NCBI GenBank assembly: GCA_020857175.1
Contig: GCA_020857175.1_3048.1
Length of the DNA stretch: 64,000 nucleotides
Direction: 5' to 3' (one strand)
DNA from: a phage
How positions within the stretch are numbered: the first letter of the stretch is position 1; each line of letters starts with the position of its first letter. Shown in pieces: positions 2,762 to 64,000 of the stretch. The translations under genes were made by a program, and so were the position numbers. The notes beneath the pieces are model-generated. The model saw only the letters and a list, made by a program, of their open reading frames with translations, was not told the origin of the DNA and searched no databases.

Positions 2762-3940
2762 TTAAAAGTATTTTTTAAAACTCATCATAACTTTATCATC
2801 AACATCATTATCAATCTGTGCAACAAGATAAGATGACAGTTCTACTTCTTGTGGCGCTGATTGAACATTATCAGAATTAAGATATTCACGAATCCAAGGA
2901 TATGGATGTTTAACCGGAGCATCGGTAATTGGGCATGGAAGACCACACTGTTTCATACGAGATACAGTTAAGTAATCAATAAAGCTCCACATGCTATTTG
3001 TATTTAATCCAGGAACATCGCCATCTTTAAATAAATGAACTGCCCAATCTTTTTCTTGGCGGTTAACTTCCATGAAAATATCAACTGCTTCTTGCTCGCA
3101 CTCTTGAGCAATTTTAACCCATTGATCGCCATCAGTACCAGATTGAAGTTGACGAATAATATATTGTGTACCTTTAAGATGAAGCTGCTCATCACGTGCA
3201 ATGAACTTCATAATCTTGGCATTACCTTCCATGATTTCCATGTTTTTATGGAAGTTAAAGGTACACGCAAAGGATACATAAAAACGAATAGCTTCTAATG
3301 CATTAATAACGTGCAAACAGAGGTAAAGAGATTTCATTAGCTCACGCTTCCAATATGTCTCATGCTCAATAGCATCTTCAATAACGTCTTCGTCTGCATT
3401 AATTTCTTTTTGGTATTCGATATCAGCTTTAGCGTTTTCCCAATAACGAGTTTTAATCAGAACATCATCATAATAACGTCCAATGGATTCAGCACGTTTC
3501 ATAATAGCTTCATCTAATACAATTTCATCAAATACCTTCGATGGATCAGTATAAAGATTTCGCATGATATGAGTATATGAACGACTGTGAATAGTTTCAC
3601 TAAAAGTCCATGTAGCAACCCATGTATCAAGGCTTGGGTCTGAAATTAATGACATAAGTACAGCAGATGGCGCGCGACCCTGAATGCTATCTAAAAGTGA
3701 TTGATACTTCAAGTTGTTAGTAAAAATATTTTGCTGATACTGAGGAAGCTTATTAAACTGTGCAGAATCCATCATCAAGTTTACTTCTTCAGGACGCCAG
3801 AAAAATGATAATTGCTTTTCGGTTAAATCTTCAAAAACTTTATGACGTTGAATATCATAACGCGCAATACCAAGACCTGAACCAAAAAACATAGGTTCTT
3901 TTAAAACATCAACTGGATTTGTATTAAAAACTGTGCTCAT
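2762..3940 (-). CDS. nrdB: ribonucleotide reductase small subunit, uninterrupted
   Basis: 392-aa continuous ORF immediately downstream of nrdA; no intron-sized interruption. Confidence 0.85.
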   Translation of the reverse strand: MSTVFNTNPVDVLKEPMFFGSGLGIARYDIQRHKVFEDLTEKQLSFFWRPEEVNLMMDSAQFNKLPQYQQNIFTNNLKYQSLLDSIQGRAPSAVLMSLISDPSLDTWVATWTFSETIHSRSYTHIMRNLYTDPSKVFDEIVLDEAIMKRAESIGRYYDDVLIKTRYWENAKADIEYQKEINADEDVIEDAIEHETYWKRELMKSLYLCLHVINALEAIRFYVSFACTFNFHKNMEIMEGNAKIMKFIARDEQLHLKGTQYIIRQLQSGTDGDQWVKIAQECEQEAVDIFMEVNRQEKDWAVHLFKDGDVPGLNTNSMWSFIDYLTVSRMKQCGLPCPITDAPVKHPYPWIREYLNSDNVQSAPQEVELSSYLVAQIDNDVDDKVMMSFKKYF

Positions 3941-3991
3941 AAATTTTCCGCTTAGTTAATAGTTGGTGACTCGTCCGTGAGTCAAATTATA

Positions 3992-6256
3992 TCATAATTT
4001 ACAGGATGAACAATCTTCAGCTTTTGGAGTTTCTATTTCATAATCATCAGTACCAGAACCGTCACGGGTATTATGATAATAGAAATTTTTTCCGCCAAAA
4101 TACCAGAAATACAAAAGGTCATCAATCATTATTGACATTGGAACCTTGCCTTTAGGGAAGATTTGGGGGTCATAGTATGTATTCGCCGAAGCTGATTGAC
4201 AAACCCATTTCAGCATAATAGCTACCTGCGTAAGATAAGGTTTATTACCTTTCTTAGCTAATTTCCATGTATAGTCGTAAAGGTCTATGTTATGCTCAAT
4301 ATTGGGCACGACTTGATTAAAGGAGCCCTCTTTTGATTCTTTAACAGAGACTGGTCCACGTGGAGGCTCGATACCGTTTGTACTGTTAGATACCTGACTG
4401 GACGATTCGCAAGGCATCAACGCGGATAAAGTAGAATTTCTAATTCCATGCTGTTTGAGTTCAGATCGAAGTTCGTCCCAATCACAAACGTATTTTGGAG
4501 CTGCGATTTGGTCAATCTTTTTATTGTACCAGTCGATAGGTAATTCGCCTCGAGACCAACGAGTGTCTGAATAATATTCACAAGGTCCTTTTTCTTTGGC
4601 GAGCTTAATGGATGCTTTAATGAGTCCATACTGTAATCTCTCAAATAGTTCATGTGTTAAATCGTTAGCATCTTCATAAGAAGCAAAGTTACTTGCCAGC
4701 CAAGCTGCATAGTTAGTAACACCTACACCGAGGTTACGACGCTTTTTAGCTTTTTCTGCTTCAGGAACTGGATATCCTTGGTAATCCAAAAGATTATCAA
4801 GAGCACGAACTTGAACTTCTGCCAATTCATTAATTTTATCTTGGTCTTGCCAGTCAAAATTATCTAGTACGAATGCAGAGAGAGTACACAATCCAATTTC
4901 AGCATCAGGACTATTCACATCATTTGTTGGAATAGCAATTTCACAACACAAGTTACTCTGACGAATAGGCGCCTTTTCACGAATAAACGGAGTATAGTTA
5001 TTCGTATTATCAATGAACTGCACATAAATCCTTGCGGTTCCTGAACGTTCAGTCATGAGCAATTCAAATAGTTCACGGGCTTTAATACGCTTTTTACGAA
5101 TATTAGGGTCTTTTTCTGCTGCTTCGTATAATTCACGGAAACGGTTTTGGTCTTTAAAATAAGAATAATAAAGTTCGCCACCCATTTCATGCGGACTGAA
5201 CAAAGTAATGTAATCATTCTTTCCGAATCGTTCCATCATTAGGTCATTCAGTTGAACGCCATAATCCATATGACGGATACGGTTTTCTTCTACGCCTTTG
5301 TTATTTTTCAAAACGAGAAGATTTTCAACTTCCAAATGCCAAATAGGATAATAAGCAGTAGCAGCGCCGCCACGAATTCCACCCTGTGAGCATGATTTAA
5401 CTGCAGTCTGAAAATGTTTCCAAAAAGGAATAACACCAGTATGGCGTACTTCACCCATGCCAATCTTAGAACCTTCAGCACGAATCATACCAACGTTAAT
5501 ACCAATTCCAGCGCGTTTAGAGATATATTCAACAATTGAAGCGGAAGCCTTGTTGATAGACTTTAATGAATCACCTGCCTCAATAACAACACATGAACTA
5601 AACTGTCGAGTCGGAGTACGACAACCAGCCATAATAGGAGTTGGTAATGAAATCTGTCGAGTAGATACTGCTTCATAAAAACGAATAACGTGTTTTAATC
5701 TATCAACAGGTTCATCTTGATGCAAGGCCATTCCAATAGTCATAAATGCAAACTGTGGAGTTTCATAAATTTGACCAGTGGTTTTATCTTTAACTAGATA
5801 TTTTTCTTTTAATTGCATCGCCCCGGAATAAGTAAATTCCATATCCCGTTCGTGCTTAATTTTTGATTCTAAAAATGTAATTTCTTCTGCTGAATATTTT
5901 GACAACAGTTCAGGGTCGTATTTACCTTCATTTACACAGTAAGAAATATGGTCAATAAATGAACGCGGTTCATACTGCCCATAAACATGCTTACGAAGAG
6001 CGAACATTAGACAACGTGCAGCTACATATTGATAATCAGGCTCTTCAACCGAAATAGAATTCGCAGCGGCCTTAATGACAATAGTCTGAATATCATCAGT
6101 TGTCATTCCATCACGGAGATAAGATTTAATATTTTCATATAATTCATAAGGATCTACTGATGTTCCCTCAGCTGCCCAAGATAAAACTTTAATAATTTTT
6201 TGTGGGTCAAAGCTCTGAGAAACACCACTACTTTTGATAACATTAATTAATTGCAT
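3992..6256 (-). CDS. nrdA: ribonucleotide reductase large subunit
   Basis: 754 aa, same length as T4 NrdA; active-site region NLCCEI... Confidence 0.9.
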   Translation of the reverse strand: MQLINVIKSSGVSQSFDPQKIIKVLSWAAEGTSVDPYELYENIKSYLRDGMTTDDIQTIVIKAAANSISVEEPDYQYVAARCLMFALRKHVYGQYEPRSFIDHISYCVNEGKYDPELLSKYSAEEITFLESKIKHERDMEFTYSGAMQLKEKYLVKDKTTGQIYETPQFAFMTIGMALHQDEPVDRLKHVIRFYEAVSTRQISLPTPIMAGCRTPTRQFSSCVVIEAGDSLKSINKASASIVEYISKRAGIGINVGMIRAEGSKIGMGEVRHTGVIPFWKHFQTAVKSCSQGGIRGGAATAYYPIWHLEVENLLVLKNNKGVEENRIRHMDYGVQLNDLMMERFGKNDYITLFSPHEMGGELYYSYFKDQNRFRELYEAAEKDPNIRKKRIKARELFELLMTERSGTARIYVQFIDNTNNYTPFIREKAPIRQSNLCCEIAIPTNDVNSPDAEIGLCTLSAFVLDNFDWQDQDKINELAEVQVRALDNLLDYQGYPVPEAEKAKKRRNLGVGVTNYAAWLASNFASYEDANDLTHELFERLQYGLIKASIKLAKEKGPCEYYSDTRWSRGELPIDWYNKKIDQIAAPKYVCDWDELRSELKQHGIRNSTLSALMPCESSSQVSNSTNGIEPPRGPVSVKESKEGSFNQVVPNIEHNIDLYDYTWKLAKKGNKPYLTQVAIMLKWVCQSASANTYYDPQIFPKGKVPMSIMIDDLLYFWYFGGKNFYYHNTRDGSGTDDYEIETPKAEDCSSCKL

Positions 6257-49556: not shown

Positions 49557-50061
49557 TATCTTGACGTTCAAAATTATGTTTATTTTTCAAATAATAAAGT
49601 TTAAAGATTTCTTCCGCATTCATTCCAAGGCCAGCAAACATATTTAATACGAAATGAAATATATCCACAAGCTCAAATTTAATTTCGAGCTGATCTTCTG
49701 GGGACATTTCATCAATGCGTTTTTCTTGCGCTTCAATATAACGTGCTTTCCATTTTTTCCAAACTGCCGATGCATCTTTTTCACCACGTGACATTTCACC
49801 AAGAGAAGTCAGAAGTTCGCGGAATTCATCATCAATACAGTCTTTTTGTTCACGCATCCAAGAAACAACATCACCGGCAGTTTCTAATTTATCTGGATGA
49901 TAACAGTATTCGCGGTCATTTGCTAAACGAATCTGCAGAGATTTCTGCATGTCAAGCATTACCTGCAGCGGGTCTTTTTCATCACCGAGAATATCCCAGT
50001 ATTCATTTTGAGCTTTATCAGCGCCTTCGATCAGTTGACTACATTCGTTAAAGTAAGCCAT
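49546..50061 (-). CDS. 56: dCTP pyrophosphatase gp56
   Basis: 171 aa from MAYFNEC; MazG-like; same length as T4 gp56. Confidence 0.8.
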   Translation of the reverse strand: MAYFNECSQLIEGADKAQNEYWDILGDEKDPLQVMLDMQKSLQIRLANDREYCYHPDKLETAGDVVSWMREQKDCIDDEFRELLTSLGEMSRGEKDASAVWKKWKARYIEAQEKRIDEMSPEDQLEIKFELVDIFHFVLNMFAGLGMNAEEIFKLYYLKNKHNFERQDNGY

Positions 50062-50121
50062 TATTTTTCCTTTCAATTCATTAATAAGTTAAATAATTAT
50101 ATCATTTGAGTATGTAAGCAA

Positions 50122-51461
<1,340 letters not shown>

Positions 51462-51484
51462 TATATCATCCTCAGCAATTTATT

Positions 51485-51516
51485 TTATAATACCATAACA
51501 AGCTGAGAAAGTAAAC
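51485..51516 (-). promoter_or_regulatory. early-type promoter upstream of 186-aa ORF
   Basis: minus-strand GTTTAC at 51511-51516 with GGTATTATAAA -10. Confidence 0.45.
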
Positions 51517-51560
51517 AAATTTATGAAATTTGTGATAAATATTAATTTAAAGGAGGACAT

Positions 51561-51761
51561 ATGGCACAAAAATTAATGGCACTTGTTAATGCCATAAAAG
51601 GTAATAAAAAACGTATAGCTTTTACTATTTCTGCTATGGTAGGAATTTTACTCTGGAACTTTATTTTATCACCAATTGCAATTGCGCATGGTGTTAATAT
51701 TCCAGTAGTTACTCTTGATACATTCGTAGATCTAGCATTTGCTTTAGTTGGGTTAATTTAA
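51561..51761 (+). CDS. small two-helix membrane protein (66 aa), plus strand
   Basis: strong RBS AAAGGAGGACATATG; two hydrophobic segments; convergent with gene 61. Confidence 0.45.
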   Translation: MAQKLMALVNAIKGNKKRIAFTISAMVGILLWNFILSPIAIAHGVNIPVVTLDTFVDLAFALVGLI

Positions 51762-52786
51762 ATCTTGGCATATTTAGATAACCGCATTTTAGCCATTAAC
51801 CCCTGGGCAATATTATTTTTCATATATTCCATAATTTGTTCAGGGGTTGCACCTTCCTTTCTAATCATATCATTAACATCTTTTGATTTCCAGGGAGATT
51901 TATCCCAAAACATAACCCTTTCTCCTGCATCAACTAATTTAGTCATTCGCTTGATAGTGTCAGGGTGACGAGGCTCATTATCTAAAACCCACACTCGTCT
52001 ATCTTTAAATGGAACAACTTCTAGGTCTAATTGACCACCCGTAATAGCTATACCATTTTCAATAAAAAGTGAATCTATAGGTCCTTCTAGAACATATACA
52101 TCACCATCTTTAACTCGTTCGACTCCATATATTTTTGTTGCCTCAGGATAAGCTTTGATGGTGATATATTTTTGAGGAGCATCTTTCTTTAATGCACGTC
52201 CTTGAAAAGACTCAGCTTTTCCATTAGCATTATAAATTGGAATAACAAGACGAGGCTCAGAAATTTCCTTTTTGTATGTTCCCAGTGCTATGCTATTAAC
52301 TAATTTAGGCCATTCGGTTGTAAACCAAAGATATTTCCATTTATCCTTTGGAATACAACGAGCTTTTACATATTTTATAATTGGATGGTCTTCCGCCAGT
52401 TTATCTAATCTAACACATGACGGAAGAGATTTAATTATTTTCTTCTCAGGATGTTTAGGAAGTTCTTTAGGTTTTTCTACTGGGCGACTTTTACCTTTTT
52501 CTTTTCTTATTTCAAAGATATACTCACGATATAAATCAGGTTCAAACTCCTTTAAATATATTCCGATTGGCGCATGATAGTTACAGTTATAACAATGAAT
52601 ATTTCCTTCATTATTATCACCATAATACCATCCACGCGCTTTATTTTGGTCGGTTTTTGAATCTCCACAAACTGGGCATCTAAACCGTAATTTAAAAGTT
52701 GAACTATTATTTACTTGTGTGAATTTAGGTAAATGAGCTAATGCACGATATGCAAACTCATTATCAATCCAAGCTATTGATGACAT
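51758..52786 (-). CDS. 61: DNA primase gp61
   Basis: 342 aa, Zn-ribbon CPVCGDSKTD... plus toprim; same length as T4 gp61. Confidence 0.85.
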   Translation of the reverse strand: MSSIAWIDNEFAYRALAHLPKFTQVNNSSTFKLRFRCPVCGDSKTDQNKARGWYYGDNNEGNIHCYNCNYHAPIGIYLKEFEPDLYREYIFEIRKEKGKSRPVEKPKELPKHPEKKIIKSLPSCVRLDKLAEDHPIIKYVKARCIPKDKWKYLWFTTEWPKLVNSIALGTYKKEISEPRLVIPIYNANGKAESFQGRALKKDAPQKYITIKAYPEATKIYGVERVKDGDVYVLEGPIDSLFIENGIAITGGQLDLEVVPFKDRRVWVLDNEPRHPDTIKRMTKLVDAGERVMFWDKSPWKSKDVNDMIRKEGATPEQIMEYMKNNIAQGLMAKMRLSKYAKI

Positions 52787-52789
52787 TCT

Positions 52790-52954
52790 TTACTCTTCTT
52801 TTTCTTTAGATTCCTCTTTTTTCTTTTTAGGAATCTGTTCAGGACCTTTATTTACTACAGCACCTGATGTTGTTCCAGTAGAGATATTTTCAGGATTACC
52901 ACCTGAATCTCCAGCAACCATATCTTCTTTAATAAATTCTTTATATGTTTTCAT
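52790..52954 (-). CDS. hypothetical protein (61.1-like, 54 aa)
   Basis: hand translation MKTYKEFIKEDMVAGDSGGNPENIS... Confidence 0.35.
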   Translation of the reverse strand: MKTYKEFIKEDMVAGDSGGNPENISTGTTSGAVVNKGPEQIPKKKKEESKEKEE

Positions 52955-52955
52955 A

Positions 52956-53312
52956 TTAACCTCTATTCATAAAAGCATTAAAAATTTGGTCATCAATAGA
53001 TGGAATAGCAACCTTTTCGGCATCATTTAGCAAATCATTAATTTCATCAGATAGCATAACACATGTGCCTTTATTTCCTGTAATTGTTACTGCACAATTA
53101 CGAACGTTTTCTTTATTAAATTTTAGGTTAATATTTTCGTAATGAAAATCCTTTAATGCTGAATATATTTTTAAAATAAAATTGTCTTTTACTACAATAA
53201 ACCCAACCTCACTATTAAAACGTGGTTCATGGAAACTGTAATAAACCTTTTCATCTATAAAATCGTATGAAATTTTTTCCATTTTTAAATATGAAAATTC
53301 AGAACTATACAT
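52956..53312 (-). CDS. hypothetical protein (61.2-like)
   Basis: 118-aa ORF. Confidence 0.4.
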   Translation of the reverse strand: MYSSEFSYLKMEKISYDFIDEKVYYSFHEPRFNSEVGFIVVKDNFILKIYSALKDFHYENINLKFNKENVRNCAVTITGNKGTCVMLSDEINDLLNDAEKVAIPSIDDQIFNAFMNRG

Positions 53313-53324
53313 ACTAACCTCTAA

Positions 53325-53618
53325 TTACTCACCTACCACTTCAGCGATGATATTTTTATTATTAAAGTTTTTATCGCAATACAGAACATAATTATACTGC
53401 ATTACACCACCAGATTTAAGTTGTTTTTGCACTTCAGCTTTCATTTCAGGACGATCACGTTCAACGATATTCATAATATCCGCTTCAATTTGAATTTCAA
53501 CTTCAGTCTGATCTGCAGTCATAGACCATTCGCACAAATCTTTGTCATAACCCGCCATAGCAGGCTGAGCAGCGCAAGAAGATAAAGCAAAAATTGCAGC
53601 AAAGATAAATTTTTTCAT
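53325..53618 (-). CDS. sp: Spackle-like periplasmic protein
   Basis: 97 aa with N-terminal signal peptide MKKFIFAAIFALSSCAAQPAMA; T4 Sp is 97 aa in the 61.x cluster. Confidence 0.6.
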   Translation of the reverse strand: MKKFIFAAIFALSSCAAQPAMAGYDKDLCEWSMTADQTEVEIQIEADIMNIVERDRPEMKAEVQKQLKSGGVMQYNYVLYCDKNFNNKNIIAEVVGE

Positions 53619-53678
53619 GATAATCTCCTCAGTAGTTTATGTTTATATAGTATCTCAATTTCCAATAAAAGTAAACAG

Positions 53679-53978
53679 TTATTTTAAAACTTCTGCATAA
53701 TCACATGTTACAAACTGTTTCTCTAACTTGGCGATTTTACGAAAGTATCTTTTGCATTGACGAATCTGTCGCTTTGTAGGGCGCACAGCAAACTTAATAA
53801 ATTCCACTCGACCAAATGGAGGGCTTTCTTCTGCCGGAATATCTAATACTAATTCCCACGTATCTGCAATAAGTGCTTTGAATTGAGTATTTTTCCTGAC
53901 ATTATACGGAGTAGGTTTAAATAAAACGATATGCATATTATCCTCGGCAATCCACTTCACATACCTTCTTGTCATCAA
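53679..53978 (-). CDS. hypothetical protein (61.4-like)
   Basis: 99-codon ORF. Confidence 0.4.
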   Translation of the reverse strand: MMTRRYVKWIAEDNMHIVLFKPTPYNVRKNTQFKALIADTWELVLDIPAEESPPFGRVEFIKFAVRPTKRQIRQCKRYFRKIAKLEKQFVTCDYAEVLK

Positions 53979-54120
53979 TGAAAGCTTTAACTAGTGCTTT
54001 ATTAACTTCAGCATATTGAGTAGTAGCCCATTGAACGTCATCTTTCATCATTGTGATCTCTTTAGTAAACATGCTTTCGTTCTTAAACCACCCCATAAAA
54101 ACTACCTTTACCAATTCCAT
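53938..54120 (-). CDS. dmd: Dmd-like antitoxin (inhibitor of host RnlA/LsoA)
   Basis: 60 aa MELVKVVFMGWFKNESMFTKEI... at 61.5 position next to gene 41. Confidence 0.55.
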   Translation of the reverse strand: MELVKVVFMGWFKNESMFTKEITMMKDDVQWATTQYAEVNKALVKAFIDDKKVCEVDCRG

Positions 54121-54178
54121 AACAATCTCCTCATTTAACCAACAAGACTACTATACCATAGTCTTGTCAGCTTGTAAA

Positions 54179-55606
54179 CTAAAATTTTAATTCATTTGCC
54201 AAAGCATCTAACTGAGCTCGAGCGGATTCGTTTCTTTGATAGCGATTCTGTTCAGCCTGAATTTGCTGTGAACCTGCTACTTCGTTCACTTCAGTTGGAG
54301 TAGAATCTTGTTCAATTTCTACCCATTTCTGATTTCCTTTTTGAACACCCATCAAAAACTTATTCCATTTATTCTTATCACCGTATCGTGATTTGATTTG
54401 CTTAATGAGTTGTTGTTCAGCAGCTGCTAGCTCCTCGGTTTCAATGACCGCAAGCATAAAATCAGCTGTTGCTGGAAGACCGGCAGATTCTGCAATATCG
54501 CTCATGTTAACATCAGAAGAATCCCAAGCTTGTTTACCAACCTGTGCTGCAGTCCAAAGAACAGTTTCGGTTTCAACAGCAAGAGCACGTAATTCCTCTG
54601 CAATGGCTTTAACAGTTGTGTAACTATTTTCTGAGTAAACTCTAATGCGGCAAGATTTACAAATACCCAGATAGTCGACAATAATGATTGTTGGAACAAA
54701 ATTCTTCTTGAGCTTTAATTCGTTTAAAAGCGAACGAAATGTATTAGCATCTGCTCCACCAGTAGGATACTGTTTAACTATTAAACGACCGAGAGTAGAT
54801 TTCTCGCGCCATTTTTCCATTTTTCCTTTATACTCAGCGTAAGAAATATGCCCGTCATCAATGTCATCAAGAGAAACATCAAGCATATTAGCATCAATAC
54901 GCTTAGCACAGACTTCTTCTGCCATTTCCATGGAAATGTAAAGAACATTATGTCCGAGCTGCAAATAATCTGCTGCCAATGAACACAGACCTAATGACTT
55001 ACCGACGTTAACACCAGCCATTAAAACGTTCAGTGTTCCAGTTTCAGCTCCACCTTTAGTAATTTTATTTAGAATTTTGAGTCTAAATGGAACCTTACGA
55101 GCTTTATTCATATAAGATAGCCAACGTGCTTCGTAGTCATCCATCCAATCATGACCAACGTAACTATCAAATGAAATTGATAATGCTTGGCGCATGATGT
55201 CAGGAATAGCACCTACATCTGGCATTTTCTTATTTCGTTTTTCCGGAGGAAGCTCAGCATTAGTTTGAATTTCAATTATTTTAGACGTAGCATTAAACAT
55301 CGCCCTTTGCTGAACATATTTTTCTGTTTCTTTTACTAACCAGCTATGGTCTTCTGGAGAATCGGCTAGTTTCGAAATAAGTGTTTTTACACCAGAATAT
55401 TCTGTTTCAGTAAATGAACTATTTTCTAATGCAACATTTAACGCATTAATAGATGGAACGCTATGGTACTCATTAACATGAGATTTAATTAATTTGAATG
55501 TATTTTTAGCTGGACCACTTTCAAAATATTCTGAATCCATATATGGCCAAACTTTTGAAAAATAAGCTTGATCAAATATGAGATGGGAAAGAATAATTTC
55601 TACCAC
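54179..55606 (-). CDS. 41: replicative DNA helicase gp41
   Basis: 475 aa DnaB-family, Walker A GVNVGKS; same length as T4 gp41. Confidence 0.9.
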   Translation of the reverse strand: MVEIILSHLIFDQAYFSKVWPYMDSEYFESGPAKNTFKLIKSHVNEYHSVPSINALNVALENSSFTETEYSGVKTLISKLADSPEDHSWLVKETEKYVQQRAMFNATSKIIEIQTNAELPPEKRNKKMPDVGAIPDIMRQALSISFDSYVGHDWMDDYEARWLSYMNKARKVPFRLKILNKITKGGAETGTLNVLMAGVNVGKSLGLCSLAADYLQLGHNVLYISMEMAEEVCAKRIDANMLDVSLDDIDDGHISYAEYKGKMEKWREKSTLGRLIVKQYPTGGADANTFRSLLNELKLKKNFVPTIIIVDYLGICKSCRIRVYSENSYTTVKAIAEELRALAVETETVLWTAAQVGKQAWDSSDVNMSDIAESAGLPATADFMLAVIETEELAAAEQQLIKQIKSRYGDKNKWNKFLMGVQKGNQKWVEIEQDSTPTEVNEVAGSQQIQAEQNRYQRNESARAQLDALANELKF

Positions 55607-55615
55607 ACTTACTCC

Positions 55616-55978
55616 TTAAAAGAATTTAAACTTTTTCTTTGACCTTTTATTGAATGCATCTTGCAGTTGCATTGTAATACATTTTTCTACATGAGGAGCT
55701 AACTCAGCTTTTCTTTCTTGGTCAAGAACAGCAAAGTCCATTACAACCTTTCCATCAACCCAATCCAGTTTAGTTACATACACTATATGTGTAGAACCAT
55801 CTTCTAGTTTAATGACAATCTCCTGGATAACATTTTCCATAGCGGATTTAATTATCTTAAGAGACTCATTAAAAAGACGTTCTTTTCTTTCTTCTTCCCC
55901 CTCCGAAGAGGGAGATTCATCGATAATTTCTAGATCTAAATCTAAATCATCTTTATTCATTAAATTCTTCCATATCAC
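55616..55978 (-). CDS. 40: gp40 head vertex assembly chaperone-like
   Basis: 120-codon ORF between uvsX and 41. Confidence 0.55.
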   Translation of the reverse strand: MIWKNLMNKDDLDLDLEIIDESPSSEGEEERKERLFNESLKIIKSAMENVIQEIVIKLEDGSTHIVYVTKLDWVDGKVVMDFAVLDQERKAELAPHVEKCITMQLQDAFNKRSKKKFKFF

Positions 55979-57128
55979 TTAACTGTTCGAGGTCAGTTTC
56001 TAAATCAGCAGCTGATTTACTTTTACTTTCTGGAGATTTAAATTTTTCAACCTTTGAGTTAATCAATTCATCAACTTCAGCTTCAACAATTTCATTACTA
56101 TCAATAGCACCTAACTGATAAGCACGTTTAATAGCATCTCGGAATGGTTGATGCTTAAATAAAGGACCCCAGAATGTAGTGCAGTTAGTATCTTTTGCAC
56201 GCCAAGATTTTTCTTCGCGAATCATCTCGCCGGTTTCTTCATCAAGAAATTCACGAGCATACCAACCATTTTTAGGTTTTACCACAAATCCTAATTCTAG
56301 AGCCATATCTAACAATCCAGAATAAGGATCGATACCACCGTCAAATTTAACATCAATAAAGAATTTACTTTTTTCTTTAACGGTACGAGATTTTTCTACA
56401 TTTAGAACAAATTGATACCCCTGAAGATCAGAACCATCTTTAATCTGACGCTTACCGATAATGAATACGGTATCAGCCGAATACATTACGCCTGTACCAC
56501 CTGTCATCACGGTTTTACTAAACATTTCAATGGTTTCAATTGTATGGTTAACTGCAACACATGGAATATTTTTAATGCTAAAATAAGGAGTAACAATACG
56601 GAATAATGACTTCAGTGATTTAGCACGAGTCATATCTGCCACAGATTTTTCATTCAAGGCATCTTCAGTTTCTTTCTTAGAAGCCATATTACCAATTGAA
56701 TCGATGAATACAATAACTTTTTCACCACGCTCAATAGTTTCAAGCTGATTCACCATATCAATTTTCAGCTGTTCAACTGACTGGATTGGCGTATGAATTA
56801 CTCGTTCTGGGTCAACTCCCATAGACTTAAGATAAGCCGGAGTGATACCAAACTCTGAGTCATAGAACAAACAGATAGCATCAGGATACTTATTCAAATA
56901 AGCTGCTACCATTGTCAGTGACATATTAGATTTAAAATGTTTAGAAGGCCCTGCGAAAATAGTTAAACCAGACTGCATACCACCGTCCAACGCACCGCTA
57001 ATTGCAATATTCAGCATTGGAATTTTAGTACGAACCACATCCTTTTCATTAAAGAACTTGCTTTTAGTAAGCTCTGCAGTCATTTTAGAAGTGGAAGCTT
57101 TAATCAAACGGGATTTTAAATCAGACAT
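55953..57128 (-). CDS. uvsX: RecA-like recombinase UvsX
   Basis: 391 aa MSDLKSRLIKASTSK..., Walker A GPSKHFKS; same length as T4 UvsX. Confidence 0.9.
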   Translation of the reverse strand: MSDLKSRLIKASTSKMTAELTKSKFFNEKDVVRTKIPMLNIAISGALDGGMQSGLTIFAGPSKHFKSNMSLTMVAAYLNKYPDAICLFYDSEFGITPAYLKSMGVDPERVIHTPIQSVEQLKIDMVNQLETIERGEKVIVFIDSIGNMASKKETEDALNEKSVADMTRAKSLKSLFRIVTPYFSIKNIPCVAVNHTIETIEMFSKTVMTGGTGVMYSADTVFIIGKRQIKDGSDLQGYQFVLNVEKSRTVKEKSKFFIDVKFDGGIDPYSGLLDMALELGFVVKPKNGWYAREFLDEETGEMIREEKSWRAKDTNCTTFWGPLFKHQPFRDAIKRAYQLGAIDSNEIVEAEVDELINSKVEKFKSPESKSKSAADLETDLEQLSDMEEFNE

Positions 57129-57370
57129 TATATTTTTCCATAGGCAGCATTATATTTTACTCATGCTTATAATAAAGGGTATTGTTATACCCAGAGTTTA
57201 ACTACATCATATTTAATAATGAGATAATTATATCACCTTATCATTTAGCATTTACTTTTTGATTTCTTACTTTCATAAAGGTCATACAGATACAATCCAG
57301 CAAGACTAACTGCGGCAAATATTCCTAAGCCAGTAATGAATAATAAAGGTCCTAACATATTAACCTCAAA

Positions 57371-58447
57371 TTAAGCGGTGATATCGAGAACGCGAAGAAG
57401 CTCTTCTTGCCATTCTGATTTTAAACTTTGATACTTAAATAGGGTTTGATGTTGTATTGTAATCAATTCCCGCCTCAAGCACTCATTGGTTTTTAACTCA
57501 TTTACTAAAGTTTCAAAATCATTTTTATTCTTAACGTAGAATCTAGGGTCGTCAATAATAAGATGCTCGCTATCAAACTCTTCATCGATAAGCATCACAG
57601 CATCTGATGCCATGGCCTCCCAGACTCTAATTGTGATAAAATTATCATTGTAATCTTTATCACCAATGACTATAGTTGCTATCGCTTGGCTATTCGTGTC
57701 AATAACCAAATTTGATGCTATTTTTTGACTGAATGATGGAGCTACATTCCACGGAAATTTAGGATTTTTAAACTGTTTCTCTTTAATAGTTCCAAACATT
57801 TTAATATTTAAATTGGTATCAAAAAGAAATTCAACTATTTTAGACTCTCGTTGCCCACCTCTAAACGCGCCGCAGTACACAACGTCATATTTTTTAATAG
57901 TTTGATTCGCAGGTTTAAGTTTCTGTGAATGAATAAAATATCTATCTACAGGAAAGTAATCATACTCAAATTCTTTACCGTATCTTTCGGTTGTTTTCTT
58001 ATGAGCCTTTTTAGCAATTTCTAGATTTCTGCCCTGAGATATTACTTTAAAGTCAGATGACACAAATAAGTCTTCATCTTTGTATTCACTTGAAAATTTC
58101 TTTCTGCGAACTACCGGAAGAACTTGCATAAATCCAAGACGGCCATCAGTAAAAATATAATAAATTTTACTTCTATATTCAGCCATCAATTTATATGAAT
58201 TTAAAACGATTGGATTTTTCTTTCCACCGAAGAAATTGATAGCGCCATTAATTACTATTAGTCTATCGTATGAATTTATATCAGTTACTACATCAAATGA
58301 TATAGTGTATTCAGTATTTCGCATTGAAATTATATCAACGGAATGCCCTAATTCAGTTAAAGACCTGCCTATTAAAATAGTTTCGGCTGATGATACTATT
58401 TTAAAATCACTCACAGTATTACTTAAATTTAGAATAGCTATTTTCAT
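57371..58447 (-). CDS. DNA hmC beta-glucosyltransferase homolog (GT-B), diverged from T4
   Basis: 358 aa MKIAILNLSN...; motifs QRESK, EKQFKNPK, ITIRVWEAMASDAVMLIDEEFD recalled from T4 beta-gt but many substitutions. Confidence 0.7.
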   Translation of the reverse strand: MKIAILNLSNTVSDFKIVSSAETILIGRSLTELGHSVDIISMRNTEYTISFDVVTDINSYDRLIVINGAINFFGGKKNPIVLNSYKLMAEYRSKIYYIFTDGRLGFMQVLPVVRRKKFSSEYKDEDLFVSSDFKVISQGRNLEIAKKAHKKTTERYGKEFEYDYFPVDRYFIHSQKLKPANQTIKKYDVVYCGAFRGGQRESKIVEFLFDTNLNIKMFGTIKEKQFKNPKFPWNVAPSFSQKIASNLVIDTNSQAIATIVIGDKDYNDNFITIRVWEAMASDAVMLIDEEFDSEHLIIDDPRFYVKNKNDFETLVNELKTNECLRRELITIQHQTLFKYQSLKSEWQEELLRVLDITA

Positions 58448-59301
58448 GATATTTCCGTAACTTCAACTTTGTGAATAGCATTAAACTTATGAAATGCTTC
58501 TGATTTTTCTTTACGCGAAACGCACATGCGAAGAACCTTTAATGGCTCGTCTTCTTCACCCAACGATTTTCGTTTTTCAATATTAGAAGTTTTCCAACGA
58601 GCTTGCTCTGGAAACTCTCTATTGATTTGCTCAAGCGCTCTATTATGTTTAGAATTACTACGAATTGAACTACACCCGCCAGGAGCTTGTGCTTTTCCAG
58701 ATACAACTAGATATTTGAACAAGGCCAAATGCGGATAACCTTGATTAATTAAATTGAGAAATGCATACATATCTTCGCATAAATCAATTTTTCCATACCC
58801 AATTTGTTCTGTCGTAAGTTTTCCGAGGTCATACCATGTATTCGTGAATCCATATGAATTTTCACGATAATTACCCCAAGATGAAGTAATTTTAAAAATT
58901 GGTAGACGAGCATGACCGTGATAATACCCGCAATCCATGGCATCTTCAACATATTGAATCAATTCATAGAACTGTTCACGAGTTAATTGATTAATTTTAT
59001 CTACGCGCCGTTTATCGTCTCTCTTTCGTATTGAACTCATACGGATAGTAGTATCATCGTCAATCATCCAGATTCGTTGACCTGCATACATATCAGTAAT
59101 TGCTTTACGAGTACCGGCAATTCCATTAACATCATCAGGAATAGTTACAATTTTAGCTCTAGACCCATAGGCATCATAATAAGCTTTTTCTTCGTGTTCA
59201 CGCACTATAATATGCGGTTCATAATCAGTCGGAAACATATCAAGGGCAGAAACTGCCCCGACACGTTGATAACTTGGAATTACGAATTGAATCATTTCCA
59301 C
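58444..59301 (-). CDS. GT-A/GT2-like glycosyltransferase
   Basis: 285 aa; FVIPSYQR N-terminal strand and RIWMIDDDTT DxD motif; ATGA-coupled to beta-gt homolog and overlapping gene 42 end. Confidence 0.55.
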   Translation of the reverse strand: MEMIQFVIPSYQRVGAVSALDMFPTDYEPHIIVREHEEKAYYDAYGSRAKIVTIPDDVNGIAGTRKAITDMYAGQRIWMIDDDTTIRMSSIRKRDDKRRVDKINQLTREQFYELIQYVEDAMDCGYYHGHARLPIFKITSSWGNYRENSYGFTNTWYDLGKLTTEQIGYGKIDLCEDMYAFLNLINQGYPHLALFKYLVVSGKAQAPGGCSSIRSNSKHNRALEQINREFPEQARWKTSNIEKRKSLGEEDEPLKVLRMCVSRKEKSEAFHKFNAIHKVEVTEIS

Positions 59302-60032
59302 TCACCTTTATAGTCTTTTTTCACAATATGAGTTTCGCCAGTATTCCACCAATGATCAACCAAATAAAAATGACGAGAATATACATGAAGACTTCCAACA
59401 TTCCATATAATAGAACCTGCTTTATACTGACGAGTTGAATCGCCTGCATTCAAATCAGATACTAATTTATCTAATACGTATTTTTGCCATGCATAATCAT
59501 TACGGAATCCGAAGACCACGTCATTTGAGCGCATGCTTACTACCGCATTGACTTTCTTATCACGAATCAAGTACTGTACTGTATTAGTACACATGAAATC
59601 TGACATACCATCTTTATTGTAGTCAAACTGCATAGATGGACGAGTATAAATCATGATACCACGTCGAGAATCAGGATTTTGACCAAGTTCAGCTAAACAC
59701 ATATCATACTGGGCATAGTTATCTTCTGACCAAATAGCCCAACCATAATTCGAGTTAATTTCGCCTTTAGAAGATGCTACCTGCTGCCAAATCTTTGGTG
59801 TTTCACCTGGAATATCTTTAACAAACAAACTCTTAGATTTATACCATTCAAGTTCACGCTGAATGTATTCATCATTAAGAGCGCCAAAAATAAACGGTTC
59901 ATCTGCTACAAATGATGCGCCAATAATTTCAATAGTTTTAACACCAGTTTTATCAACTACGAAATCTTTTTCTTTTAATGCAAGCCCCAAATGAAGACGG
60001 ATTTCTTCAACTGTCATAGAGTCACTAATCAT
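59292..60032 (-). CDS. 42: dCMP hydroxymethylase gp42
   Basis: 246 aa, thymidylate-synthase-like, same length as T4 gp42. Confidence 0.85.
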   Translation of the reverse strand: MISDSMTVEEIRLHLGLALKEKDFVVDKTGVKTIEIIGASFVADEPFIFGALNDEYIQRELEWYKSKSLFVKDIPGETPKIWQQVASSKGEINSNYGWAIWSEDNYAQYDMCLAELGQNPDSRRGIMIYTRPSMQFDYNKDGMSDFMCTNTVQYLIRDKKVNAVVSMRSNDVVFGFRNDYAWQKYVLDKLVSDLNAGDSTRQYKAGSIIWNVGSLHVYSRHFYLVDHWWNTGETHIVKKDYKGEWK

Positions 60033-60039
60033 TTAAACC

Positions 60040-60189
60040 TCAATTGATACATTCATATTTAACTTGTAACAGTAATAAACTCCAACCTAAAATAATAGTT
60101 GGAATCATAAGAGGAACCGTTACACTATAGTATATACTTATTATAATCATCAAGATTAAAAGCAACACTGCTATAATTTTGCTTTTCAT
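60040..60189 (-). CDS. small membrane peptide (49 aa)
   Basis: codon-by-codon translation MKSKIIAVLLLILMIIISIYYSVTVPLM...; ATGA-coupled to imm. Confidence 0.35.
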   Translation of the reverse strand: MKSKIIAVLLLILMIIISIYYSVTVPLMIPTIILGWSLLLLQVKYECIN

Positions 60190-60437
60190 TCCTTCTCTCT
60201 GATGATAATTACCTGATTTGGTTGTGCAGACTTTTTAGTTTCACCCGCAATTGACCAAATAAATGTAATAAACCAACCAATAATTGACCAGTTAAACAGT
60301 AAAGATGTGAAAAAGATTCCTACTGTCGATTTTGACCCACGCATCAAAGCAATAAACCATGGAAGCATGTATATAATAATAGCCAACACGCCTGAAACTA
60401 AAACCATAAAAATTGAACCTGCTACTAAAGTTTCCAT
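60186..60437 (-). CDS. imm: superinfection immunity protein Imm
   Basis: 83 aa membrane protein, same length as T4 Imm, position next to 42. Confidence 0.75.
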   Translation of the reverse strand: METLVAGSIFMVLVSGVLAIIIYMLPWFIALMRGSKSTVGIFFTSLLFNWSIIGWFITFIWSIAGETKKSAQPNQVIIIREKE

Positions 60438-60444
60438 GTTTTCC

Positions 60445-60825
60445 TCACTTAGTCAAATTTTTTACGCATGAATTATAAGAATTCACTACATACTCCATCG
60501 GAGCATTTTTACCAGTACGCCATTGGTAATTATTAGCCCAATTAGCCCAAATTTCGGCGCAGTAGTTTTCAATTTTTTCTTCGTGTGTAATTACATCAGA
60601 ATTACGATATGCTTGAGCAGATTCATCTGGACGAATAGCTTCGTCAAAATTCGCCTGCATTTGTTCGACTGTTTGCTTTGGAGCTTCTTTATAACACTTG
60701 ACATTAGGATTATAAAATTTGCTTGAACAGTTTACAATTTTTCCTACATCAGACTGATTTACTACCGGTCCTTGAGCTACACAACCAGTAAGACCTAATG
60801 CAATAACCAAAATAGCGATTTTCAT
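60445..60825 (-). CDS. lipoprotein
   Basis: 126 aa, signal peptide with LTGC lipobox. Confidence 0.5.
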   Translation of the reverse strand: MKIAILVIALGLTGCVAQGPVVNQSDVGKIVNCSSKFYNPNVKCYKEAPKQTVEQMQANFDEAIRPDESAQAYRNSDVITHEEKIENYCAEIWANWANNYQWRTGKNAPMEYVVNSYNSCVKNLTK

Positions 60826-60835
60826 AATAATTTCC

Positions 60836-61084
60836 TCAAATGCAAGTAGTAATTACTCCAGTAGTGCTTATGCAGGTATTACCCATTTGCACACCTAAAG
60901 ATCCATTTGTATTCACATGAAGATTATCATCAATTTTAACTGATATTTTACCATTAGTGTGAATAACGGTGCTAGATTCAATCACAGGTTGAGTATCATT
61001 TTCAACACTAACAAATGGAACTGCTGCTAATGCAACTAAACAAACTGCTAAGCATCCCATAACAATTTTCATTTCATTCTCCAA
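60836..61084 (-). CDS. small secreted or membrane-anchored protein
   Basis: 82 aa with N-terminal hydrophobic signal-like segment. Confidence 0.45.
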   Translation of the reverse strand: MENEMKIVMGCLAVCLVALAAVPFVSVENDTQPVIESSTVIHTNGKISVKIDDNLHVNTNGSLGVQMGNTCISTTGVITTCI

Positions 61085-61104
61085 ATCCGTATCAGTAGTT
61101 GATA

Positions 61105-61140
61105 GTTGTATAGTACCATGGAAGAACAGTCTTGTAAACA
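61105..61140 (-). promoter_or_regulatory. early-type promoter
   Basis: minus-strand GTTTAC at 61134-61139 and GGTACTATACA -10. Confidence 0.45.
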
Positions 61141-61214
61141 GTTTTGTGAAAATTTTTTAGGGAATTCTAAATGTCCAGAATCATCTGTTTTTCATAAGTA
61201 TAGATTTATATTAC

Positions 61215-61242
61215 TTGTATGAAAAAGGGACCCGGAGGTCCC
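61215..61242 (-). terminator. rho-independent terminator downstream of gene 43
   Basis: GGGACC-CGGA-GGTCCC hairpin followed by T-run on minus strand. Confidence 0.55.
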
Positions 61243-61255
61243 TAGATTTATTCTA

Positions 61256-63952
61256 TCAGCCAAACAGGAAGTCTAACGAAGCTTTTTCTTCATAGTCCAT
61301 ACCAGCCGATTCACACATGCCCGCAAGCGGTTTAACAAACGATTTTTGGAACAAAGTTGAGTAGTCAATCCAAGACAGTACGTCAGAACGAATTTCTTTT
61401 GGAAGTTCTGTACCCGACGGCCAAGCAATGCATTTGTCACCAAATGGATTTCCTTCACGCAATGGAAGAACCATTACTTTATTTCCATCCAAAATTGGAG
61501 CTACACCTAAACCGCTAACAGCTCGACGATAAGTTAGCACACCGCGAATATGGAACGGGCATTTAAATCCTGGCCAACCTTTATCATCATATTTCGCTAT
61601 ATCGTTCGCAGTTTTTACTTCAGCAATAACTTTATAGTCAAGTTGACGATATTCTTTCTCGAAGTTCTTGTAGTATTCTTGGACAGACTCTTCACCTTCT
61701 TGAAGAATACGACGAATACTTTCTTCGAGAGCTTCTTGGACCGCTTTAGGCGTTGAACTCTGCTGAGTTTCCATACCCATGATTTTTAGATGCGGTTCAG
61801 CAAATCGTTTATCTTCCATATCATAAACGTTCAGAGCATAACGCTTTTTCGCTTTCCAAAATCCACCAATACCCTTTGAACCAAGTGGAGGGCAAGAAAT
61901 AGCTTCACGGTCCATATGCATCAGATGCTCGCGGTTATTCATATAATCACATAACTCACGATATGCAACATCAATCATAGGTTCCATCTTTTTCTTACCG
62001 AACTGATTCATAAATTCAACCAAATCGTTCTGCTCTTTGAATCGGTCAAGACCAACTTTTTCAATAACTTTATCTACACAAACATATACCGAATCAGTAT
62101 CACCTGCTGCGATGAAATCTTCGCCATTAGTTCCACATACTTTATTCAGATACTCATTAATTTTACGAGCAATCCACTGAATACCAACTTGGCCGAAAAT
62201 TGTGATAGCAGTAGCATTTCGCAAATCATAGTAACGGAAATGAATATTACCAAGAGCACCATAAAGACTGTTAATAAGAATTTTACGGTTCAGCTGATTT
62301 GTATTAGCAAGTGTAGCAGCTTTTTCACATTCCTCAATCAGACTATTGAGAACAGATTCAGTATAATTCGACAGTTCATTTAAGAAATCATCACTGAACT
62401 TAACATATCGTTCAACTTCTGGTTTAGTTGAACAAGACCCTGCGCCTTTCATAATAATCTTTTTAATAGCTTCGGCATTCATTTCTTCAGCGAACATTTT
62501 CTTTTTCCAGTCTTTACGCTGGAAAAATACTTTAGCGATTTCCTTTGGAATGATACCTTCTTGATGCTTATCATACATCCATCCATTCGGAGAACAAGAA
62601 TATTCATCACTCGGTTTAGGAGCTGTTCCTGCAATATATTCATGAATTGGATGAACTTTAAACTGACCACGAATAGTCTCAGGACTAATGTTAACCTGAC
62701 GAATAATGCTCGGATACAGAGACGTCAAGTCAAAACTCATAATATATCGACGAGCAATTGGTTTAGGTTCAAATACGAATGCACCCGGAAAACTCTGTTT
62801 AACGTGCGAACCCTGTTGAGGAATAACCTTATGTTCACCTTTCAATGAGTTAAAAATAATAGCATCCCAAGTTTTAATAGGACTCATTACACCAGAAAAA
62901 GGCATTTTAGCATAATAAGACATACTTAAAACTAGATCGATAAACCCGCGAATTTTATCAATTGCTTGAACTGATTCTACGTCAATGATGTTATAACTAA
63001 TGTATCGTTGATGATTAGTCTCACGAAGTTTATTAATAGGACCATCATACGGTAATTTACCTTTTTTGGTTTCATGTTGAGCAACTGATTCCAAAGAGAA
63101 TGACGGCAAATTAGTAAAAGCGAATTTCTTGTACAAATCTAAATAATCAAGAATAGATACGCCATCAATAGAATAAATTTCTTTGCTACCGTACATATTT
63201 TGAATTAGTTTAGATTTTACTCGACCGATTGGAGAGAAGCGTTTCATACTACGTTCACCGAGAACCATTTTAACACGATTCATGATATACGGAACGTCAA
63301 ATCCCTCAATATTCCAACCAGTAAAAATAGCAGGTCGTTTCTGTTCCCAGAGATTGATATATTCCATGAGCATATCACGCTCATTATCGAATGGCATATA
63401 AATTACTCGGTCAAGAATTTCTTGAGGAACTTCATCACCACCTTCACAGTCAAGCTTAGCAGCTAACTTTGCATCCCATTTTGATACTGAACCGTACATT
63501 GAATTCAAAAGGTCGAAAACATAAAAACGATCATCAATTGAATCATAATGAGTGATAGCATCAATTTCATATTCAGCTTTCATTGGATCAGGAAATTTAT
63601 CACCAGTAACCTCAATGTCACAGTTAGCTACACGAACAAATTTTCGGTCATAAACAATTTCTGAACCATACGTATCACTGATATAAGCGAGTTTAAAATC
63701 GTTCATACCAAGAGCTTCGAGACCGATGTCTTCCATTCGCTTCATCCAATCTCGAGCATCTTTCATTGATGGAAATTTTTGAGGAGCGCAATTTTTACCA
63801 TAGATGTCTTTGTACTTTGACTCTTCCTTACAATGTCTAAACATAGTTGGAAGATATTCTACTTCGCGAGTACGTTCCTTTCCATTTTCATCAATATAAC
63901 GTTCAACAATGTTATTTCCGACTGTTTCGATAGAGATATAAAATTCTTTCAT
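61256..63952 (-). CDS. 43: DNA polymerase gp43 (family B)
   Basis: 898 aa MKEFYISIETVGNNIVERYIDENGKERTREV...; exo motifs and DTDS polymerase motif; same length as T4 gp43. Confidence 0.95.
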   Translation of the reverse strand: MKEFYISIETVGNNIVERYIDENGKERTREVEYLPTMFRHCKEESKYKDIYGKNCAPQKFPSMKDARDWMKRMEDIGLEALGMNDFKLAYISDTYGSEIVYDRKFVRVANCDIEVTGDKFPDPMKAEYEIDAITHYDSIDDRFYVFDLLNSMYGSVSKWDAKLAAKLDCEGGDEVPQEILDRVIYMPFDNERDMLMEYINLWEQKRPAIFTGWNIEGFDVPYIMNRVKMVLGERSMKRFSPIGRVKSKLIQNMYGSKEIYSIDGVSILDYLDLYKKFAFTNLPSFSLESVAQHETKKGKLPYDGPINKLRETNHQRYISYNIIDVESVQAIDKIRGFIDLVLSMSYYAKMPFSGVMSPIKTWDAIIFNSLKGEHKVIPQQGSHVKQSFPGAFVFEPKPIARRYIMSFDLTSLYPSIIRQVNISPETIRGQFKVHPIHEYIAGTAPKPSDEYSCSPNGWMYDKHQEGIIPKEIAKVFFQRKDWKKKMFAEEMNAEAIKKIIMKGAGSCSTKPEVERYVKFSDDFLNELSNYTESVLNSLIEECEKAATLANTNQLNRKILINSLYGALGNIHFRYYDLRNATAITIFGQVGIQWIARKINEYLNKVCGTNGEDFIAAGDTDSVYVCVDKVIEKVGLDRFKEQNDLVEFMNQFGKKKMEPMIDVAYRELCDYMNNREHLMHMDREAISCPPLGSKGIGGFWKAKKRYALNVYDMEDKRFAEPHLKIMGMETQQSSTPKAVQEALEESIRRILQEGEESVQEYYKNFEKEYRQLDYKVIAEVKTANDIAKYDDKGWPGFKCPFHIRGVLTYRRAVSGLGVAPILDGNKVMVLPLREGNPFGDKCIAWPSGTELPKEIRSDVLSWIDYSTLFQKSFVKPLAGMCESAGMDYEEKASLDFLFG

Positions 63953-64000
63953 AGATATTCCTTAGTTTATAGCCCGAGTTATTAGGCTCTTGATATATTA

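Follow-up and report, generated by a model that had tools for sequence, protein, structure and literature searches.

The 64,000-nucleotide (nt) stretch of phage DNA analyzed here (NCBI GenBank assembly GCA_020857175.1, contig GCA_020857175.1_3048.1; hereafter the window) carries on its minus strand, between gene 42 and uvsX, two adjacent genes for predicted DNA glucosyltransferases. These are TAGT (58444-59295), a gene of the T2/T6 type, and a diverged homologue of T4 beta-gt (57371-58447). They appear to form the distal part of a co-transcribed run that leads from gene 42 through TAGT to the beta-gt homologue and is coupled by overlaps between the reading frames. The beta-gt homologue lies on a 1.3-kb cassette that was most likely acquired by recombination, and the two enzymes would act together with a third one, alpha-gt, on hydroxymethylcytosine (hmC) in the phage DNA. 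Taken as a whole, this explanation, which comprises the gene run, the identities of the enzymes, the proposed chemistry, and the origin of the cassette, is in our judgment probable.

The gene content of the window and the identity of the locus to that of phage vB-Eco-KMB26 (KMB26) indicate a T-even type coliphage of the genus Tequatrovirus. In the list of open reading frames (ORFs), the minus strand contains, in order, gp41, gp40, uvsX, the beta-gt homologue, TAGT, gene 42, imm, imm.1, and gp43. Gene 42 (59292-60032, 246 amino acids [aa]) is syntenic with T4 gp42, its product matches the Pfam family Thymidylat_synt with an E-value of 1.1e-15, and the segment formed by gene 42 and its neighbors (59310-60825) is 96.3% identical to T4 at the nucleotide level. 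The product, dCMP hydroxymethylase, makes hydroxymethyl-dCMP (hm-dCMP), and its gene is the first of the coupled run. The TGA stop codon of gene 42 overlaps the ATG start codon of TAGT in an ATGA sequence at 59292-59295, and the stop codon of TAGT overlaps the ATG start codon of the beta-gt homologue (358 aa) in a second ATGA at 58444-58447, both reading tcat on the plus strand, with the result that the three genes are chained by two 4-nt overlaps. Such stop/start overlaps are expected for a translationally coupled operon, and the coupling at both junctions is therefore described as putative. The downstream overlap had been pointed out in a first-pass annotation of the window made from the letters alone, and both ORFs and their junction can be read from the minus strand as described there. 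The upstream overlap is also annotated in KMB26, e11/2, and T2 and is visible in the T6 sequence. The size of the TAGT product needs adjustment, since the ORF as listed (58444-59301) starts from a GTG at 59301 and gives 285 aa. Judging from the homologues, the true start is the ATG at 59295, which gives 283 aa, because all of them begin with MIQFVIPSY and the annotations of the relatives (KMB26, e11/2, and T2) start there as well.

Sequence comparison identifies the 283-aa protein as the T2/T6 beta-glucosyl-HMC-alpha-glucosyltransferase (ba-gt, also named ggt or TAGT). It matched the Pfam family TAGT (PF20691) with a score of 39.2 bits (the cut-off is 27.5) over profile positions 2-205 of 205, and the family phrog_842 (beta-glucosyl-HMC-alpha-glucosyltransferase) with an E-value of 8e-89. 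It is identical to the T2 enzyme at 268 of 279 residues (96%) and to the T6 enzyme at 248 of 260 residues (95%), in agreement with one of the options raised in the first-pass annotation, namely a second-glucose transferase of the T2/T6 type. From its family, the enzyme is predicted to add a second, beta-1,6-linked glucose onto alpha-glucosyl-hmC. The motifs FVIPSYQR and WMIDDDT, which had been cited as GT2/GT-A hallmarks, are both found in the protein, and the profile, the alignment, and a structure model all point to a GT-A-type DxD sugar transferase. The DxD motif, predicted to bind metal and the nucleotide sugar, corresponds to DDD at residues 79-81 (59053-59061, minus strand; coding sequence GAC GAT GAT, atcatcgtc on the plus strand), and all three aspartates (D79, D80, and D81) are conserved without exception in 10 TAGT homologues. 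The model of the protein is GT-A-like, and the lack of a sugar transferase fold, which would have spoken against the first-pass annotation, is thus not observed. A sequence search of the PDB with TAGT yielded chance matches only (E > 1), and NCBIfam contained no match for either TAGT or the beta-gt homologue.

In T4, beta-gt lies directly beside gene 42, as the first-pass annotation had correctly stated, with a gap of 23 nt between them. The position of a GT-A DxD enzyme between the beta-gt homologue and gene 42 is therefore unlike T4 and could be taken to mean that an unusual extra DNA sugar transferase, specific for arabinose or another non-glucose sugar, was inserted into a T4-like beta-gt/42 locus. 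This explanation is hardly tenable, as it is contradicted by the 95-96% identity to the T2 and T6 enzymes. Furthermore, TAGT is found with a protein identity of at least 95% in ~470 phage records at the same locus, of which it is the normal occupant, and the inserted gene is the beta-gt homologue. There is no indication of a non-glucose sugar, the other suggestion made from the letters alone, and on the evidence of the profile matches both proteins are fully accounted for by glucosyltransferase families.

The TAGT alleles of the two reference phages show peculiarities of their own. The T2 gene (AP018813.1; positions 3283-4125 of our extracted region L012, minus strand) carries the substitutions R11H and P251S. 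In the TAGT alignment, R11 is strictly and P251 almost strictly conserved, and at both positions the window allele has the consensus residue. It could be speculated that the two substitutions relate to the low gentiobiosyl content of T2 (~5%, vs 72% in T6). In the T6 record MH550421.1, the ggt/TAGT gene contains an in-frame TAG at codon 10, directly after MIQFVIPSY (positions 3951-3953 of region L011, minus strand), and the coding sequence is annotated only from Met20, as a protein of 261 aa without the first beta-strand. Such a truncation is odd for a phage that is reputed to have 72% gentiobiosyl-hmC, and the stop codon may be a laboratory-stock mutation or a sequencing error.

The 358-aa protein is, on the evidence of profiles and alignments, a diverged but full-length member of the T4 DNA beta-glucosyltransferase family with GT-B fold; the first-pass annotation had likewise named it a diverged beta-gt homologue. 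It matched PF09198 over residues 1-170 (E = 2e-61, 207 bits, with a cut-off of 27) and the PHROG beta-glucosyltransferase family phrog_7922 over the full length (E = 7.5e-138), and its residues 1-355 align to residues 1-350 of the solved structure of T4 BGT (PDB 1bgt) with an E-value of 7.5e-124 and ~55% identity. For both genes of the pair, the profile matches (PF09198 and phrog_7922 here, PF20691 and phrog_842 for TAGT) rule out chance ORFs. A 14-member alignment of the family has 34 invariant columns, and the window protein departs from none of them. They include E22, D101 (D100 in T4), R196 and R200 (R191 and R195), R274 and E277 (R269 and E272), and the NFFGG loop. We take Asp100 of T4 BGT to be the catalytic base (Glu22 is named with it) and Arg191, Arg195, Arg269, and Glu272 to bind UDP, so the catalytic Asp and the UDP-binding residues are shared by the two proteins. 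In GenBank, the KMB26 copy of the protein is annotated as hypothetical.

Within this family, the protein is rather isolated. In a search of 5.8 billion proteins, its closest relative outside the 12 phage records that carry the gene is 96% identical and the next one only 55%, a scan of IMG/VR revealed no relatives of the beta-gt homologue, and in the phage records all other beta-gt proteins are less than 60% identical to the KMB26 type. In a neighbor-joining tree, the KMB26-type subfamily is located on a long branch as a sister to the T4 clade; its identity to other subfamilies does not exceed 56%, whereas neighboring subfamilies share 57-67% among themselves. The absence of relatives in IMG/VR, together with a single 96% relative followed by proteins of at most 55% identity, indicates that the donor lineage is unsampled.

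Comparison with T2/T6-type relatives delimits the segment on which the beta-gt homologue resides. Megablast and alignment define a cassette of 1.3 kb (57170-58471, minus strand) that is absent from these relatives: the match to the T2/T6-type phage e11/2 covers only 58472-63399 and 53324-57169 of the window, and in the alignment identity collapses near the end of TAGT, within its nine final codons, and resumes just upstream of uvsX. Besides the beta-gt homologue and its ATGA junction, the cassette thus contains the diverged tail of TAGT (the last 9 codons), a 37-aa ORF, and a hairpin. Its GC content (31-33%, compared with 31-38% in the flanks) is not distinctive. The stretch 57200-59400 is fully covered in 12 of 542 matching phage records, and the others match only from 58472 rightwards, through TAGT and gene 42. 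The carriers are vB-Eco-KMB26 (OR539218.1), CHD2BS1, CHD16UKE1, G3F6, G3F8, G3F9, G3G6, G3G7, PM123, PM136, UPWr_E2, and G2540, all with the same gene order as the window. Over this stretch, the window is 98.9% identical to G2540 at the nucleotide level and 99.9-100% identical to the other 11 records, KMB26 included. The only cassette relative that is not identical is a metagenomic contig (Logan SRR32122129; region L005), in which the beta-gt homologue is intact and encodes the 96%-identical protein mentioned above, the only other allele of the subfamily. Over a wider segment of 14 kb (49582-64000), the identity of the window to KMB26 is ~99.0-99.5%, compared with 99.95-100% at the transferase locus, and the window therefore represents a sister isolate and not KMB26 itself.

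This distribution reverses the roles assigned to the two genes in the first-pass annotation, which had taken the GT-A enzyme for the extra gene. To judge from the records compared, TAGT is the usual occupant of the locus, and the beta-gt homologue with its cassette is the uncommon additional gene. The flank formed by TAGT and gene 42 is 100% identical at the nucleotide level to that of phages without the cassette, e.g. e11/2, and therefore gain or loss of the cassette was recent. The window TAGT ends in KVEVTEIS in place of the PIAVD of the T2/T6 type, hence it is 3 aa longer, and it is followed by beta-gt instead of uvsX; the altered C-terminus is explained by a recombination junction at 58472. 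Since the imported block begins in this diverged but still alignable tail (HKVEVTEIS vs HPIAVD) and includes an ATGA junction of its own, the donor probably already possessed a coupled TAGT-beta-gt pair. The most likely origin of the cassette is therefore recombination with an unsampled phage in which the two genes were coupled.

Such pairs are well established elsewhere. In T4, gene 42 is followed by the 23-nt gap, beta-gt, segA, and uvsX, and TAGT is absent; the beta-gt gene of T4 (PDB 1bgt, 1jg6, and 1ixy for the protein) thus occupies the same interval between 42 and uvsX, but in the window the start codon of its homologue overlaps TAGT and segA is missing downstream. The T2/T6 gene shares both the locus and the ATGA overlap with gene 42. 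Salmonella phage S16 (Gelderlandvirus) has exactly the layout of the window, in which gene 42 is followed by TAGT, an ATGA overlap, a 358-aa beta-gt, a small ORF, and uvsX, and many records of Karamvirus, Moonvirus, and Gelderlandvirus have annotations of beta-gt and TAGT side by side. Phages CC31, PG7, S16, STML-198, Moon, Merlin, and PS2 have been tabulated with beta-gt and ba-gt homologues by Thomas et al. 2018 (PMC6024577). The proteins from these three genera are 44-45% (beta-gt) and 64-65% (TAGT) identical to those of the window. Unlike KMB26, their pair-bearing members (S16 of Gelderlandvirus, CC31 and PG7 of Karamvirus, Moon and Merlin of Moonvirus) do not have alpha-gt, and the window TAGT falls into the clade that is associated with alpha-gt.

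The presence of alpha-gt in the closest relatives changes the number of enzymes to be considered. The first-pass annotation had proposed a two-enzyme modification of hmC. In KMB26, CHD2BS1, and G2540, a full-length alpha-gt gene is located ~13 kb away from the TAGT-beta-gt pair, and the KMB26 protein matches T4 alpha-gt (PDB 1xv5) with an E-value of 5.6e-258. The alpha-gt product makes alpha-glucosyl-hmC, the known acceptor of TAGT, and, judged from these relatives, the system would consist of three enzymes (alpha-gt, TAGT, and the beta-gt homologue) and not two. A survey of 753 phages with T-even-type transferases found exactly one with all three types (PMC13216743, published in NAR in 2026; preprint 10.64898/2025.12.06.692756). 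This phage is vB-Eco-KMB26, which is named there among six genomes compared but is not characterized, and our literature search on cassette-bearing phages found nothing beyond this one-line count. In the database searched here, 12 records show this combination, and one metagenomic contig (L005) carries the cassette together with a frameshifted TAGT gene. The literature thus already covers the two enzyme families, the coupled pair, and the presence of three transferases in this lineage, and the novelty implied in the first-pass annotation was overestimated, the coupled pair being standard in other genera of Tevenvirinae (PMC6024577) and the set of three having been noted (PMC13216743).

Published work on the individual enzymes suggests how they would divide the task. 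Alpha-gt works with the replisome and cannot modify neighboring hmC, so that ~25% is left bare in T2, in T6, and in T4 without b-gt; TAGT adds beta-1,6 glucose to alpha-glucosyl-hmC, and in T4 the remaining sites are filled by beta-gt (PMC13160076, PMC13216743, PMC6024577). In the window phage, alpha-gt at the replisome would place alpha-glucose on roughly three quarters of hmC, TAGT would use UDP-glucose to extend some of the alpha-glucosyl-hmC to gentiobiosyl-hmC, and the beta-gt homologue would beta-glucosylate the hmC that alpha-gt cannot reach and that stays bare in T2 and T6. The DNA is thus likely to resemble that of T6, with alpha-glucosyl- and gentiobiosyl-hmC, but to lack naked 5hmC, the rest being beta-glucosylated.

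The glycosylation of hmC decides which defenses attack T-even phages, among them McrBC, GmrSD, Brig1, Brig3/BapA, and CRISPR, and a changed spectrum of restriction and anti-restriction, as anticipated in the first-pass annotation, is a reasonable expectation. Brig3 is a 5hmC-specific glycosylase that targets bare 5hmC, and the deglucosylase BapA strips mono-glucose but not gentiobiose (PMC13160076). If the predicted DNA composition is correct, defenses directed at bare 5hmC, such as Brig3 or McrBC, would be left without substrate, and the BapA-resistant gentiobiose would be kept. T4 DNA is fully mono-glucosylated and T2/T6 DNA is partly gentiobiosylated with 25% bare hmC, so a lineage with three transferases could unite both protections. 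It also offers natural controls, G2540, in which the beta-gt homologue is frameshifted, and e11/2, which does not have the cassette. These would allow a direct test of the contribution of the second primary transferase, a question raised in PMC13216743. The components are textbook enzymes, and the value of the lineage would be that of a convenient test system and not of a new mechanism.

Several observations limit this picture or speak against it. The window itself ends inside gene 43 and holds no alpha-gt, which was seen in the closest relatives only. The Shine-Dalgarno sequence before the ATG of the beta-gt homologue is weak, and its expression would therefore depend on the predicted coupling. 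Compared with the metagenomic relative L005, the beta-gt homologue shows 16 non-synonymous and 6 synonymous differences, and the ratio of non-synonymous to synonymous substitution rates (dN/dS), which rests on only these 22 substitutions, is 0.67, as opposed to 0.16 for TAGT, 0.06 for gene 42, and 0.02 for uvsX (Fisher test of the beta-gt homologue against gene 42 and uvsX, p = 4e-6). In addition, the window allele has T11, I17, and A194 at positions where the other 13 aligned members all have N, T, and S (S194 corresponds to Ser189 of T4), so that the conservation of N11, T17, and T4 Ser189 across the family does not extend to it. With the family as outgroup, N11T, T17I, and S194A appear to be derived in the window allele, and the 96%-identical relative also keeps N, T, and S. 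A search of the open-access literature for roles of positions 11, 17, and 189 of T4 BGT found nothing. Finally, G2540 has a run of seven A in place of six (window 57721-57726), and the resulting +1 frameshift splits its beta-gt homologue into annotated ORFs of 249 and 80 aa (just upstream of position 4750 in region L004).

These features would be accounted for if the beta-gt homologue were a dispensable or decaying passenger of recombination that adds little to the protection provided by alpha-gt and TAGT, in which case the DNA would be like that of T2/T6. The rarity of the cassette, found in 12 records compared with ~470 that have TAGT alone, would also fit. However, 11 of the 12 records and the metagenomic relative have an intact frame of 358 codons, and the complete retention of the 34 columns that do not vary in the family, with the catalytic and UDP-binding residues among them, also speaks against a passenger. 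Because it affects a homopolymer, the frameshift in G2540 may be an error of sequencing, and the small number of substitutions behind the dN/dS ratio leaves diversifying selection equally possible. The elevated ratio and the changed positions fit either relaxed constraint, as in a drifting passenger, or diversifying selection and a functional shift. We consider a passenger rather unlikely and, with less confidence because of these features, lean towards a plain, fully active beta-gt.

A functional shift would imply new chemistry, either through a changed acceptor or donor specificity of the beta-gt homologue or through TAGT also extending beta-glucosyl-hmC, and hence modified forms unlike those of T2, T4, and T6. 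In addition to the elevated dN/dS and the changes at otherwise invariant positions, the long branch of the subfamily would agree with such a shift, the discrimination of TAGT between alpha- and beta-linked acceptors is given as undetermined in PMC13216743, and extension of beta-glucosyl-hmC by TAGT is suspected for phages that have beta-gt and TAGT but not alpha-gt. The consequences could include di-glucosylation at every hmC and a new escape profile against Brig1, Brig3/BapA, and GmrSD. On the other hand, the active-site signature of the beta-gt homologue is fully conserved, TAGT is identical at the nucleotide level to that of phages without any beta-gt and therefore shows no sign of co-adaptation, and no additional gene for sugar-nucleotide biosynthesis was seen between uvsX and gene 43. 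New chemistry is thus quite improbable, and glucosylation by the three enzymes in their established roles is the preferred explanation.

Smaller elements accompany the pair on the cassette and beside it. The 37-aa ORF (57245-57358, minus strand; translation MLGPLLFITGLGIFAAVSLAGLYLYDLYESKKSKSKC) is hydrophobic and preceded by a GAGG Shine-Dalgarno sequence, but it is doubtful as a gene. It was considered as a gene of the cassette and downgraded, since the L005 version lacks the ATG and has a 3-nt deletion, and no homologues were found outside the 12 cassette-bearing records. It differs from KMB26 by one amino acid and is identical in G2540 and the window, and the small ORF that occupies this position in S16 is not hydrophobic and shows no relationship to it. 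Between the cassette genes and uvsX, a consensus scan detected a terminator-like hairpin (GGGTATAACAATACCC, 57177-57192, minus strand) with a T-rich tail, in which one stem base differs in L005. A promoter scan performed no better than on shuffled sequences (25 found vs 21 ± 4.8 expected), and no promoter is claimed. By eye only, the sequence AAATGCTAAATGATAAGGTGATATAAT (57215-57245, minus strand), upstream of uvsX, resembles a T4 middle promoter, with a MotA-box TGCT, an 11-nt spacer, and TATAAT. It has a diverged counterpart in e11/2, and the terminator-like hairpin sits between it and uvsX. In L005, a T5A4 run of the TAGT gene contains one additional A, and two ORFs are called in place of the single gene (regions of note in L005, 1583-2435 and 3508-3560). 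On the other side of the locus, e11/2, G2540, and L005 have a 49-aa ORF (Pfam Phage_T4_Y02C) that separates gene 42 from imm; it is missing from the corresponding interval of the window (60033-60185), as it is in T4 and KMB26.

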